This document shows, piece after piece, positions 25,100 to 27,483 of a stretch of DNA of 64,000 nt. The DNA is from Escherichia coli (GTDB taxonomy: Bacteria > Pseudomonadota > Gammaproteobacteria > Enterobacterales > Enterobacteriaceae): the NCBI RefSeq assembly GCF_003334765.1, contig NZ_QOWT01000006.1; one strand, written 5' to 3'. Numbering within the stretch: the stretch's first letter is position 1; each line of letters starts with the position of its first letter. A model generated the notes under the pieces. It was not told where the DNA came from and ran no database searches. It worked only from the letters and a program-made list of their open reading frames with translations. Position numbers and translations under genes: made by a program.

Positions 25100-25906
25100 A
25101 TGATCGAAACGCTGCTTGAAGTGCGTAATTTAAGTAAAACGTTCCGCTACCGGACCGGCTGGTTTCGTCGTCAGACCGTAGAAGCGGTAAAACCCTTGAG
25201 CTTTACGCTACGTGAAGGCCAGACACTGGCGATTATTGGCGAGAATGGTTCGGGTAAATCCACGCTGGCAAAAATGCTGGCGGGAATGATAGAGCCTACC
25301 AGCGGCGAGTTATTGATTGACGATCATCCACTGCATTTTGGCGATTATTCCTTCCGCAGTCAGCGTATTCGCATGATTTTTCAGGATCCTTCGACCTCGT
25401 TGAATCCCCGTCAACGTATCTCGCAAATTCTGGATTTTCCACTGCGCCTGAACACCGACCTGGAACCGGAACAGCGTCGCAAACAGATTATTGAAACGAT
25501 GCGTATGGTTGGGCTGCTACCGGATCACGTCAGTTACTATCCGCATATGTTGGCACCCGGACAAAAACAGCGTCTGGGTCTGGCGCGCGCGCTGATATTG
25601 CGCCCAAAAGTCATTATTGCCGATGAAGCCCTCGCTTCACTGGATATGTCGATGCGTTCGCAGTTGATTAATCTGATGCTGGAATTACAGGAAAAACAGG
25701 GCATTTCGTATATTTATGTTACCCAGCATATCGGAATGATGAAGCACATTAGCGACCAGGTGCTGGTGATGCATCAGGGCGAGGTTGTCGAGCGAGGCAG
25801 CACCGCGGATGTGCTGGCATCGCCGCTGCATGAACTCACCAAACGGCTGATTGCCGGTCATTTTGGCGAGGCATTGACGGCGGATGCGTGGCGTAAAGAT
25901 CGCTAA
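25100..25906 (+). CDS. sapF: ABC transporter ATP-binding protein
   Basis: 268-aa ORF with Walker A (GENGSGKST). Confidence 0.95.
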   Translation: MIETLLEVRNLSKTFRYRTGWFRRQTVEAVKPLSFTLREGQTLAIIGENGSGKSTLAKMLAGMIEPTSGELLIDDHPLHFGDYSFRSQRIRMIFQDPSTSLNPRQRISQILDFPLRLNTDLEPEQRRKQIIETMRMVGLLPDHVSYYPHMLAPGQKQRLGLARALILRPKVIIADEALASLDMSMRSQLINLMLELQEKQGISYIYVTQHIGMMKHISDQVLVMHQGEVVERGSTADVLASPLHELTKRLIAGHFGEALTADAWRKDR

Positions 25907-25932
25907 TTTTCTGAATCCTCCTTCCAGATTAT

Positions 25933-25977
25933 TCACCTCATTCTGACAAAAGATTAAATCTTGTCAGAATGAGGTGA
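25933..25977. repeat. 17-bp perfect inverted repeat (tcacctcattctgacaa / ttgtcagaatgaggtga) with 11-nt spacer
   Basis: Read directly from sequence; right arm overlaps the GTG start of ycjD. Confidence 0.8.
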
Positions 25978-26327
25978 TAGATAAAATTAAATCAAATGCG
26001 CGTGATTTAAGACGCAATCTCACTTTGCAGGAACGAAAGCTCTGGCGATATCTTCGCAGCCGACGTTTTAGTGATTTCAAATTTCGCCGTCAACATCCAG
26101 TGGGGAGCTACATTCTCGATTTTGCTTGCTGCTCGGCGCGTGTAGTCGTTGAGCTGGATGGTGGGCAGCATGATTTAGCAGTTGCCTATGATTCCAGGCG
26201 CACTAGCTGGCTTGAGTCGCAGGGCTGGACCGTGCTGCGTTTCTGGAATAACGAGATTGATTGTAATGAGGAGACGGTGCTGGAGAATATTCTGCAGGAA
26301 CTGAACCGCCGGTCACCCTCTCCCTGA
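25974..26327 (+). CDS. ycjD: DUF559 family protein (Vsr-like endonuclease fold)
   Basis: 117-aa ORF MIDKIKSNARDLRRNLTLQERKLWRYLRSRRFSDFKFRRQHPVGSYILDF...; start is GTG. Confidence 0.85.
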   Translation: MIDKIKSNARDLRRNLTLQERKLWRYLRSRRFSDFKFRRQHPVGSYILDFACCSARVVVELDGGQHDLAVAYDSRRTSWLESQGWTVLRFWNNEIDCNEETVLENILQELNRRSPSP

Positions 26328-26376
26328 AAGAGCGAGGGGGCAGACCGAGCCGAATAGCTGTTGTGGTGAAAACATG

Positions 26377-26450
26377 GAGACGGTGCTGGAGAATATTCGG
26401 CAAGGTCTGAACCGTCCCAGCCATCGCCATGAAAGGGTTAGGGGCTGTAT
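26377..26450 (+). repeat. degenerate tandem copy of the ycjD 3' end
   Basis: gagacggtgctggagaatattc... recurs about 106 bp downstream of its first occurrence at 26271 and aligns to the ycjD tail at roughly 75% identity. Confidence 0.6.
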
Positions 26451-26694
26451 GAGCCTGTTTGTTGCTGGGGTAACAATATTTGCACAATACGGTCCCCTCG
26501 CCCCTCTGGGGAGAGGGTTAGGGTGAGGGGAAAAGCGCCCCCCCTGCCGCAGCCTGCTCCGGTCGGACCTGGCAACTATAGCTACTCACAGCCAGGTTGA
26601 TTATAATAACCGTTTATCTGTTCGTACTGTTTACTAAAACGACGAATCGCCTGATTTTCAGGCACAACAAGCATCAACAATAAGGATTAAAGCT

Positions 26695-27483
26695 ATGGGT
26701 TTTCTTTCCGGTAAGCGCATTCTGGTAACCGGTGTTGCCAGCAAACTATCCATCGCCTACGGTATCGCTCAGGCGATGCACCGCGAAGGAGCTGAACTGG
26801 CATTCACCTACCAGAACGACAAACTGAAAGGCCGCGTAGAAGAATTTGCCGCTCAATTGGGTTCTGACATCGTTCTGCAGTGCGATGTTGCAGAAGATGC
26901 CAGCATCGACACCATGTTCGCTGAACTGGGGAAAGTTTGGCCGAAATTTGACGGTTTCGTACACTCTATTGGTTTTGCACCTGGCGATCAGCTGGATGGT
27001 GACTATGTTAACGCCGTTACCCGTGAAGGCTTCAAAATTGCCCACGACATCAGCTCCTACAGCTTCGTTGCAATGGCAAAAGCTTGCCGCTCCATGCTGA
27101 ATCCGGGTTCTGCCCTGCTGACCCTTTCCTACCTTGGCGCTGAGCGCGCTATCCCGAACTACAACGTTATGGGTCTGGCAAAAGCGTCTCTGGAAGCGAA
27201 CGTGCGCTATATGGCGAACGCGATGGGTCCGGAAGGTGTGCGTGTTAACGCCATCTCTGCTGGTCCGATCCGTACTCTGGCGGCCTCCGGTATCAAAGAC
27301 TTCCGCAAAATGCTGGCTCATTGCGAAGCCGTTACCCCGATTCGCCGTACCGTTACTATTGAAGATGTGGGTAACTCTGCGGCATTCCTGTGCTCCGATC
27401 TCTCTGCCGGTATCTCCGGTGAAGTGGTCCACGTTGACGGCGGTTTCAGCATTGCTGCAATGAACGAACTCGAACTGAAATAA
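26695..27483 (+). CDS. fabI: enoyl-[acyl-carrier-protein] reductase (NADH)
   Basis: 262-aa [54 protein letters not shown]...; SD aagga upstream. Confidence 0.97.

Follow-up and report, generated by a model that had tools for sequence, protein, structure and literature searches.

The question raised by this locus is what joins a small gene to the repeats that surround it. The locus lies in a 64-kb stretch of K-12-type Escherichia coli DNA (the window), in which sapD, sapF, ycjD, fabI and yciW follow one another. The 788-bp spacer between sapF and fabI, the region studied here, contains ycjD, a gene for a DUF559 protein, together with an inverted repeat at the start of the gene, a degenerate copy of its 3' end and a GC-rich palindromic block. 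A first-pass annotation had read this arrangement as a trace of past duplication or mobility of ycjD. The inverted repeat, the tail copy and the GC-rich block are all real, and they are three independent, adjacent and mutually unrelated features. What appears to be new is a conserved physical coupling, visible in sequence comparison, between YcjD-type nuclease genes and repeats of the BoxC type. It is very probable that the spacer combines a hairpin of the sap operon, the layout of a ycjD/BoxC module and a tandem duplication that arose in Escherichia. For the whole explanation, in which three independent features adjoin and YcjD would act on BoxC within a ycjD-BoxC module, the probability is put at about 0.7.

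The gene and the two repeat elements on which the coupling turns are the following:

25974 to 26327, plus strand: ycjD, encoding a DUF559 protein of 117 aa, a predicted Vsr-fold PD-(D/E)XK nuclease-like protein (profile, structure and conserved residues).
26313 to 26340, minus strand: truncated BoxC/TMECO at the ycjD stop (C-arm 26316-26324, loop TGAAA, G-arm 26330-26340).
26495 to 26530, plus strand: BoxC/PIT/TMECO no. 9, type A with one mismatch, inverted relative to the elements at the ycjD tail (match to a published table).

The GC-rich block at 26495-26530 reads CCCTCGCCCCTCTGGGGAGAGGGTTAGGGTGAGGGG. It is identical to entry 9 in Table 1 of Holder et al. (MG1655 1,351,204-1,351,239; Holder et al. 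2015, PMC4666352) and agrees with the published pattern 5'-CCCTCNCCC N3-6 GGGNGAGGG N3 GGGNGAGGG-3'. The first-pass annotation had correctly seen a palindromic block here. Its view of the block as a by-product of ycjD duplication does not hold, however, as the block is a known dispersed repeat, BoxC/TMECO no. 9. According to Holder et al., the TMECO is the same as BoxC and as the PIT elements of Hoyne and Maher (2000, 2002), and MG1655 contains 23 copies. These elements form triplexes in vitro, are linked to locally variable DNA and are "always intergenic", without a shared flanking gene, gene class or flanking consensus (PMC4666352). The first description of BoxC is, per a reference in the same paper, the 1992 envM paper (Bergler 1992). 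BoxC-like places are dispersed and multicopy, with a median of 16 per E. coli genome, and TMECO no. 9 is the one that sits between ycjD and fabI. Since BoxC was first described in the envM paper and envM is fabI, the copy at 26495-26530 is probably the founding copy. In Rfam, the region gave only meaningless miRNA matches to the palindrome at E <= 1, and six related loci gave no match at the gathering thresholds. A slight by-eye likeness of the DNA after TMECO no. 9 to the N-terminal region of a Variovorax homologue could have marked a second DUF559 5'-end remnant, but this candidate was rejected, as hmmsearch in three frames gave only E > 1.

The link between gene and repeat can be read directly from the enterobacterial relatives of YcjD. 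In about 100 homologues with 55-67% identity, from Enterobacter, Klebsiella, Kluyvera, Lelliottia, Phytobacter and others, the protein almost always terminates in ...LPSPRPSP. The codons for PSPRPSP, CCC TCA CCC CGG CCC TCT CCC, are the reverse complement of the G-blocks of a type-B TMECO (GGGAGAGGG-CCG-GGGTGAGGG), and longer homologous open reading frames (ORFs) end in ...PSPRPSPWKGEGE. In Enterobacter asburiae the gene end reads ...CCCTCACCCCGGCCCTCTCCC TGAAA GGGAGAGGG and is followed 11 nt later by a sense type-A TMECO. With the published regular expression, such a sense copy is found near the gene end in 11 of 17 enterobacterial loci; nine of these lie 11-114 nt after the antisense copy, while the other two (L018 and L019) are merged with or overlap the ORF end. 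The region between the two copies can also be expanded. In Klebsiella quasipneumoniae (L011, 4340-4560) the antisense and the sense BoxC after the DUF559 gene are separated by three tandem units of about 66 nt, all of which contain a ccctctccctcagcgagaggg hairpin.

The same arrangement extends far beyond the enterobacteria. A survey that covered one genome per species and used an alignment of 22 sequences as query yielded 80 loci from many phyla. These were searched with a purpose-written motif finder that required a C-block, a gap of 1-6 nt, a C-arm of 9 nt, a loop of 3-8 nt and a complementary G-arm. As control, the motif was sought at the 3' end of 325 neighboring ORFs of at least 200 aa. 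The antisense three-block motif is present at the gene end in 60 of the 80 loci and at least its hairpin in 72, in Gamma-, Beta- and Alphaproteobacteria, Melainabacteria, Planctomycetes, Elusimicrobia, cyanobacteria and others. Only 12 of the 325 control ORFs (3.7%) carry it, compared to 58 of the 80 family loci (73%) in which it stands at a fixed register (odds ratio 69, Fisher p = 1e-39). Counted from the position that corresponds to YcjD codon 105, most of the motifs begin at +17 to +32 nt (interquartile range +22 to +25 nt). In the AT-rich Gastranaerophilales the GC-rich motif directly follows the stop codon. As the stop codon lies before, in or after the hairpin depending on the taxon, it is the DNA that is conserved here and not the peptide.

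A second copy of the motif is found at the other end of the gene. A sense copy, with its third block on the side of the gene, occurs no more than 100 nt upstream in 42 of the 80 loci; in most non-enteric taxa the distance from this copy to the conserved N-terminal helix is 20-85 nt (10th-90th percentile). The complete layout was read directly in ten units (from Variovorax, Gallionella-like metagenome-assembled genomes, Melainabacteria, a cyanobacterium, Pirellula and others) and runs from C-arm, loop, G-arm, gap and G-block through a spacer and the ORF to C-block, gap, C-arm, loop and G-arm. Both ends are recovered by the strict finder in 33 of the 80 loci, with a median unit of 431 bp (400-473). 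When the ends of these 33 units are compared as inverted repeats, the identity is 0.85 within loci versus 0.72 between loci (p = 1e-12), and in four loci the ends are identical. Gene-end motifs are also more similar to solitary copies at their own locus than to those at other loci (0.79 versus 0.71, p = 0.01). Gene-less copies can show the gene-flanking geometry too. Four of the five BoxC doublets of MG1655 consist of a sense and then an antisense copy with a gap of 16-27 nt; the hrpB-mrcB doublet was read directly and the others were taken from Table 1 of PMC4666352. In Neisseria gonorrhoeae, NGO0050 (the gene of 3hrl, the crystallised member of the family) has a degenerate sense motif about 45 nt upstream. 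The upstream copy is missing in the enterobacteria, and E. coli keeps the 3' side only. From this comparison, the true repeat bracket of YcjD-like DUF559 genes is the inverted BoxC-type pair of the other taxa, of which only the 3' half is left in E. coli. The ycjD gene can then be described as the Escherichia copy of a compact module, a DUF559 gene of 110-120 aa with its 3' end written into an antisense BoxC motif. No link of the YcjD/DUF559 family to BoxC, PIT or TMECO was found in the open literature (titles, abstracts and keyword checks, with subscription-only papers outside this scope).

Three further observations concern the behavior of the repeats at these genes. The Logan short-read contigs L008, L009 and L010 end 5 nt after the DUF559 stop, and short-read assemblies therefore break at BoxC. 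At one and the same locus of Enterobacter, two BoxC elements have collapsed to one (L019) or types A and B are swapped (L025), which suggests rapid local recombination. The gap between the third block and the arm in the gene-end motifs (L014-L093) reads CGG, CAG, CAA, TAA, TAG, CTG or CGA. Such a set of variants resembles a deamination series of CCGG/CpG, an odd finding for an enzyme of the Vsr fold.

YcjD is the E. coli representative of DUF559, a very large family of unknown function. The protein matches the NCBIfam equivalog NF007294 with 267.8 bits (cut-off 218), PF04480 is precomputed for its close homologues, and the comparison with PDB entry 3hrl gives E = 1e-33. In a Foldseek search with the AlphaFold model (mean predicted local distance difference test score, pLDDT, of 82), 3hrl was the best hit, followed by the homing endonuclease I-Bth0305I (E = 2e-5, TM-score 0.65-0.82), while Vsr itself matched weakly. 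The Vsr-like endonuclease fold that the first-pass annotation had expected is thus supported by the 3hrl match and, as far as a predicted model allows, by Foldseek. The putative catalytic residues D49, E60, D62 and H66 do not vary among 22 homologues, and K-12 has all four. The ratio of nonsynonymous to synonymous substitution rates is 0.18 in Escherichia (against the L098 allele) and 0.15 in Enterobacter, and ycjD is therefore under purifying selection. Taken together, ycjD is predicted to be a functional gene for a PD-(D/E)XK nuclease. Carriage on plasmids or in defence islands was considered and dropped: only 35 of 72,556 plasmid records carry the gene, many of them being chromids or mislabelled chromosomes, and YcjD has no PADLOC match. 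The YcjD model also matches several mitoribosomal proteins of ciliates and apicomplexans (query TM-scores 0.58-0.68), and mitoribosomes have apparently taken up a DUF559-like fold.

Within the Enterobacterales the gene is found in at least seven chromosomal contexts: between sapF and fabI, hemW and yggN, cysP and a Dyp peroxidase gene, and a LysR-family regulator gene and bcsG, as well as by prlC, ybdK and metG. So many contexts suggest mobility over evolutionary time. The locus is stable within genera or families, as in the Enterobacter group, the Xanthomonadales (upstream of a carboxylase gene) and the Comamonadaceae (upstream of a thiolase gene).

At the 3' side of ycjD in E. coli, the BoxC motif has been duplicated together with the gene tail. 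The features involved are:

26270 to 26375, plus strand: tandem unit 1, with the last 13 ycjD codons, the truncated antisense BoxC and a spacer (repeat search and alignment; strain EC21Z-063 lacks exactly one unit).
26376 to 26481, plus strand: tandem unit 2, the tail copy, non-coding in K-12 and about 73% identical to unit 1 (alignment).
26416 to 26444, minus strand: decayed BoxC/TMECO of unit 2, reading CCCAGCCATCGCCA TGAAA GGGTTAGGGG (from the alignment of the units).

The degenerate copy of the ycjD tail some 106 bp further on, reported in the first-pass annotation as roughly 70 nt long, is longer than that and forms a full 106-nt tandem duplication. It includes a direct repeat of 39 nt (26270-26308 versus 26376-26414) with 90% identity and a spacing of 106 nt. 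In a global alignment of the two full 106-nt units 77 positions are identical, with a score of 88 versus 0 +/- 8 in shuffles. In some alleles (P0004, P0012, P0018, P0022 and P0074) unit 2 is read as the end of the ORF, and several database alleles have the gene body fused to unit 2 or are open through both units. The loop TGAAA of the truncated BoxC contains the ycjD stop, and the third block has disappeared through a 12-nt deletion. The complete three-block form, CCCTCACCCCAACCCTCTCCC-loop-GGG.GAGGG, is found at the first ycjD tail in the alleles CB6886 and L098, and in CB6886 13 extra nt restore the three-block outline of the unit-2 element as well. Tails 1 and 2 of K-12 retain only the hairpin part of the strict three-block pattern. 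Because the third block was lost and is full in CB6886 and L098, the K-12 tail elements are truncated relics and not strict BoxC members. The ycjD 3' end at 26315-26339 is 80% complementary to the left part of the GC-rich block.

Natural tail alleles contain one unit, two units or indels of a 12-13-nt block. CB6886 is the "12-nt longer" allele of the ST69 type, with two longer units of 118 and about 120 nt and a 14-nt extension (134 nt to the sense BoxC), whereas L098 has a single tail. Two natural ycjD alleles are disrupted: in EC21Z-063 the gene is an annotated pseudogene from which one 106-nt unit has been deleted, and in ETEC6 an IS1 insertion splits ycjD. As a single tail is the rule in other genera, the tandem duplication of tail, BoxC and spacer that produced the tail copy evidently took place within Escherichia and is specific to it. 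Tandem tail units are also seen in Klebsiella, Pseudocitrobacter, [Erwinia] mediterraneensis and Variovorax, and tail duplication is therefore a recurrent property of the region. The Escherichia tail copy probably arose by slippage or unequal recombination at the hairpin-forming repeats, a process that would still be generating the one-unit, two-unit and block-indel alleles. The duplication fits the instability that has been reported at TMECO loci (PMC4666352).

The setting of the gene is variable among E. coli strains, and it is defined by the following features:

25100 to 25906, plus strand: sapF, the last gene of sapABCDF (ORF and RefSeq annotation of the identical K-12 stretch).
25978 to 26547, plus strand, borders approximate: ycjD-type segment, which stands in place of the approximately 8-kb eefRABCD operon of other phylogroups (comparison with the A42 junctions).
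26695 to 27483, plus strand: fabI (envM) (ORF and annotation).

The ycjD form is present in 3375 of 5426 complete E. coli genomes. In the remaining genomes, including O157:H7 and A42, an efflux operon of about 8 kb occupies the site between sapF and fabI, and its eefRABCD content comprises an MFS protein, an outer-membrane factor, an RND pump, an adaptor and a TetR regulator. The first-pass annotation had proposed to look for variable presence of ycjD across E. coli, and this is what was found. The alternation of eefRABCD and ycjD has been published, with ycjD in phylogroups A, B1 and C and in the sequence types ST69 and ST182 (PMC12817139). That study describes the same polymorphism as here, but treats ycjD as a hypothetical ORF and mentions neither BoxC nor the tail duplication nor the sapF hairpin. 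The presence-absence polymorphism and the identity of the GC-rich block as BoxC/TMECO no. 9 are therefore already known. Between A42 and the ycjD form the common sequence ends at the right end of the hairpin and resumes at about ...ccgcagc.... The operon (L004, 6892-14384) and the ycjD segment (25978-26547) occupy the same slot, from the sapF hairpin to the shared ...ccgcagc...caactatagc... before fabI.

On the left side of this slot lies the inverted repeat:

25933 to 25977, no strand assigned: sapF-distal hairpin, a perfect 17-bp inverted repeat with an 11-nt loop (repeat search, RNA fold and comparison).

The two arms (25933-25949 and 25961-25977) are 17 nt each and 100% complementary, and the annotated GTG start of ycjD (25974) lies inside the right arm, just as the first-pass annotation had described it. 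The RNA folds at -28.9 kcal/mol (z = -7.8), which none of 200 shuffles equalled. No second close copy of the 17-mer occurs in the window (shuffles: mean 0.17 matches at <=3 mismatches), and across 3317 genomes the K-12-type hairpin was found in exactly one place per genome, which rules it out as a dispersed repeat. Directly after the sapF stop of the eef+ strain A42, gCACCTCATCCTGAcaggccccccTCAGGATGAGGTGttcattactttt forms the same hairpin with another loop and a T-A to C-G exchange. In the divergent Escherichia lineage L098 the hairpin after sapF reads CACCTCATTCTGACAGG-N9-CCTGTCAGAATGAAGG. When four variants are folded to a consensus, 19 pairs are retained, and three of these rest on compensatory changes on both sides. 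Because the 17-bp repeat is present in genomes that lack ycjD, with compensatory changes, and is single-copy in each genome, it is not an end of a ycjD element. The bracketing of ycjD by this repeat, as proposed before, has to be given up: the repeat is a hairpin of the sapF 3' end. By comparison among strains, it is very probably the hairpin that closes the sap operon transcript, and it is older than ycjD at the sapF-fabI site.

In the eef+ form the hairpin stands between convergent genes and a U-rich run comes next (UUCAUUACUUUU). In K-12 the stem is followed by AUAGAUAAAAUU, the U-run being replaced by the ycjD 5' end. The K-12 hairpin is a stable stem-loop, but no U-tract directly follows the stem and a terminator scan reports no terminator there. 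It is therefore better called a terminator-derived or processing hairpin than a Rho-independent terminator. The right foot of the hairpin is also the exact start of the ycjD-specific DNA, and the stem would therefore bury the start codon and the only Shine-Dalgarno-like GAGG. Most ycjD alleles read GAGGTG ATG GAT AAA; in K-12 the ATG has become ATA, which leaves only the in-stem GTG as a start (window 25974-25979: GTG ATA in K-12 versus GTG ATG in M8, CB6886 and 10034940-2). The K-12 gene is probably transcribed by read-through from sapF and poorly translated. Within the hairpin, 25943-25970 holds symmetric sigma-70-like hexamers on both strands (CTGACA-16-CAGAAT with TG), and antisense transcription and translation are mentioned at the ycjD 5' end in the eef paper (PMC12817139).

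The earlier interpretation of the locus was, by these comparisons, partly right. A duplication did happen, namely that of the tail, and with homologues in at least seven contexts the gene family looks like a mobile or selfish module, whereas the 17-bp repeat, on which the idea had partly been built, is no part of this module. The first-pass annotation had also held that an invariant locus and a unique repeat would speak against it; the locus is not invariant (3375 of 5426 genomes), and the 17-bp repeat is indeed unique per genome (3317 genomes).

Several other explanations have been weighed against the coupling of a nuclease gene with its repeat. If a mobile or duplicated ycjD cassette were delimited by the hairpin on the left and by the tail copy with the GC palindrome on the right, the presence of ycjD in only part of the E. 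coli genomes would be accounted for, as would the start of ycjD-specific DNA exactly at the right edge of the hairpin. This is hardly credible, since the hairpin is found in eef+ genomes without ycjD with its stem kept by compensatory changes, is unrelated to the sequences on the right side and unique per genome, and has no counterpart upstream of the homologues in other genera. The BoxC motif could also be a mere cis element of the DUF559 transcript, which stabilises the 3' end, terminates transcription, sets the context of the stop or start codon or serves autoregulation, for example, with the dispersed copies spreading separately. The hairpin part of the motif does form a stable RNA stem, and the stop codon and sometimes the start codon lie inside it. 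Yet no U-tract follows the motif, no Rfam family matches it, and PIT elements show no terminator or promoter activity (PMC4666352). The taxon-dependent position of the stop again points to conserved DNA and not to a conserved peptide, and a simple terminator needs neither a sequence and third block that are conserved across phyla nor ends that co-vary as inverted repeats. A cis-element role is for these reasons considered unlikely.

YcjD might instead be a free-standing homing-type endonuclease that cuts gene-less BoxC sites and is copied in by repair, with BoxC as landing pads and not as products. I-Bth0305I as closest characterised fold neighbor would suit this view, as would the many different intergenic contexts, the rarity of the gene on plasmids and the occurrence of diverged gene lineages together in one genome. 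It is nevertheless quite unlikely, given that the gene keeps to one locus within genera and families (Enterobacter group, Xanthomonadales, Comamonadaceae), that E. coli without ycjD has an 8-kb operon at the site instead of an unoccupied BoxC, and that no occupied E. coli BoxC locus was seen besides sapF-fabI. Finally, YcjD could be an ordinary Vsr-like endonuclease for T:G mismatches that serves some cytosine methyltransferase, while BoxC accumulates at unstable intergenic hot spots. A functional tie of this kind exists in Caulobacter, between the DUF559 protein VsrA and the ScmA methyltransferase (PMC12907096), and TMECO loci are unusually variable (PMC4666352). A GC-rich motif in AT-rich genomes would then be left unexplained, however, and random accumulation of BoxC is rejected because of the fixed register (+22 to +25 nt), the fixed orientation and the enrichment of 73% versus 3.7%. 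The Vsr-like explanation is accordingly regarded as highly improbable.

For the preferred reading, the coupling of gene and repeat in one module, the following mechanism may be envisaged. YcjD would be a BoxC-recognising nuclease, and the form in which it meets this DNA would probably be an extruded or single-stranded hairpin or a triplex. Gene and repeats would then form one selfish or semi-domesticated system that works like RAYT with REP/REPIN, and the gene-less single BoxCs and sense-to-antisense doublets would be non-autonomous derivatives of the gene-bearing unit. As a cognate nuclease, YcjD would read the hairpin or triplex structure, would be responsible for producing or maintaining the dispersed copies and would destabilise the DNA at these loci. 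That YcjD acts on BoxC and that gene and repeat make up a single selfish or semi-domesticated module is put forward as a tentative proposal, at clearly less than even odds, from sequence and from analogy with known systems. Similarly tentative is the general form of the idea, in which YcjD-type DUF559 proteins would be the cognate BoxC nucleases and constitute a second, HUH-independent repeat-plus-enzyme system, similar to REPIN-RAYT, across Proteobacteria, cyanobacteria, Melainabacteria and other phyla.

A number of observations weigh against such a module. Gene copies in the same genome are not each other's nearest relatives; nothing thus points to a recent spread inside genomes, and recent intragenomic multiplication was rejected on this ground. 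Target-site duplications were not found at the unit ends: the longest shared flank word has a mean of 4.3 nt versus 3.9 nt in mismatched controls. A DUF559 sequence lies beside only one of 104 solitary motifs, and most copies therefore persist without an adjoining gene. The same count led to the rejection of solitary BoxCs as 5'-truncated copies of the DUF559 gene, as the single case with DUF559-like coding upstream is itself a second intact gene. The layout is not invariant either, since a Synechocystis plasmid copy has inverted motifs in the reverse geometry and the order in the enterobacteria is gene, antisense, sense instead of the general sense, gene, antisense. Moreover, earlier experiments on PIT/BoxC found no promoter, terminator or other activity (cited in PMC4666352), and E. 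coli genomes without ycjD keep 1-16 BoxC-like copies.

The last point bears on the co-occurrence of gene and repeat. In a spread sample of 60 E. coli genomes, which represent few independent lineages, those with ycjD have 10-26 other BoxC-like places (median 18) versus a median of 5 in those without it (Mann-Whitney p = 6e-10). Among the latter, the O157-type genomes have about 12 such places and the others 1-5. This co-occurrence runs in the direction expected of a functional link, but because the independent lineages are few it is confounded by phylogeny. The TMECO counts in Table S1 of Holder et al., with 2 in B2 strains, 12 in strain 042, 21 in BL21 and 29 in 55989, agree in direction and are confounded in the same way (PMC4666352). 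A keyword search located no Salmonella, Citrobacter or Yersinia entry in the supplement parts that hold this table (PMC4666352), and none of the three genera is among the best 120 YcjD homologues. In Table S1, Caulobacter crescentus is listed with 17 TMECOs and Azospirillum with very many (PMC4666352). C. crescentus also has vsrA, a DUF559 gene with a phenotype (PMC12907096), and YcjD-like genes occur in seven Azospirillum replicon records.

BoxC has been catalogued in E. coli since 1992, later as PIT and TMECO, with no function, origin or partner protein assigned, and the cross-phylum link now gives a candidate partner enzyme. The fixed nature of this link makes questions about both BoxC and DUF559 directly testable. 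Should it be functional, it would provide a PD-(D/E)XK counterpart to the REP/RAYT paradigm, and it would explain the breaks of short-read assemblies at these genes as well as the indel and duplication polymorphism at ycjD. The message for the locus itself is that the 17-bp repeat is best seen as the sap operon hairpin and that the K-12 ycjD allele is without its ATG and starts inside the stem.

Compared to the BoxC/PIT/TMECO literature, the gene-end motifs fit or nearly fit the published pattern CCCTCNCCC-N3-6-GGGNGAGGG-N3-GGGNGAGGG. There, however, the element is always intergenic and gene-less, whereas here the antisense copy supplies the 3' end of the ycjD-family ORF, and the genes of many phyla have inverted copies on either side. 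With the clade of Vsr, DUF559 and I-Bth0305I (group 58, PMC3424549) YcjD has the fold and the catalytic motif in common. The clade members differ in their setting: Vsr, which is linked to dcm, is a repair enzyme for T:G mismatches, I-Bth0305I resides in a phage group I intron, and YcjD is stand-alone and linked to a repeat.

The YcjD unit can also be held against insertion sequences and miniature inverted-repeat transposable elements (MITEs), reportedly treated by Mahillon and Chandler in 1998. It resembles them in its size of about 430 bp, its inverted ends of about 35 nt and an ORF that stops inside the right end, and the gene-less doublets are comparable to internal-deletion derivatives. 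Unlike them, it has no known transposase fold, no target-site duplication and no multicopy bursts. There is also a likeness in architecture to REP/REPIN-RAYT, which is said to go back to work by Nunvar (2010), Bertels and Rainey (2011) and Ton-Hoang (2012). In that system a single or low-copy gene is flanked by inverted hairpin repeats that also occur as dispersed singles and inverted doublets, the locus is stable in the genus, and there is no target-site duplication. RAYT itself is an HUH/Y1 transposase related to IS200/IS605, with demonstrated activity on the repeat. The YcjD family is similar in its low copy number, its stable locus, its flanking inverted repeats and its dispersed gene-less copies. 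Since YcjD has a predicted Vsr-like PD-(D/E)XK fold and not an HUH/Y1 fold, it is not a member of REPIN-RAYT and stands beside that system as an architectural analogue only.

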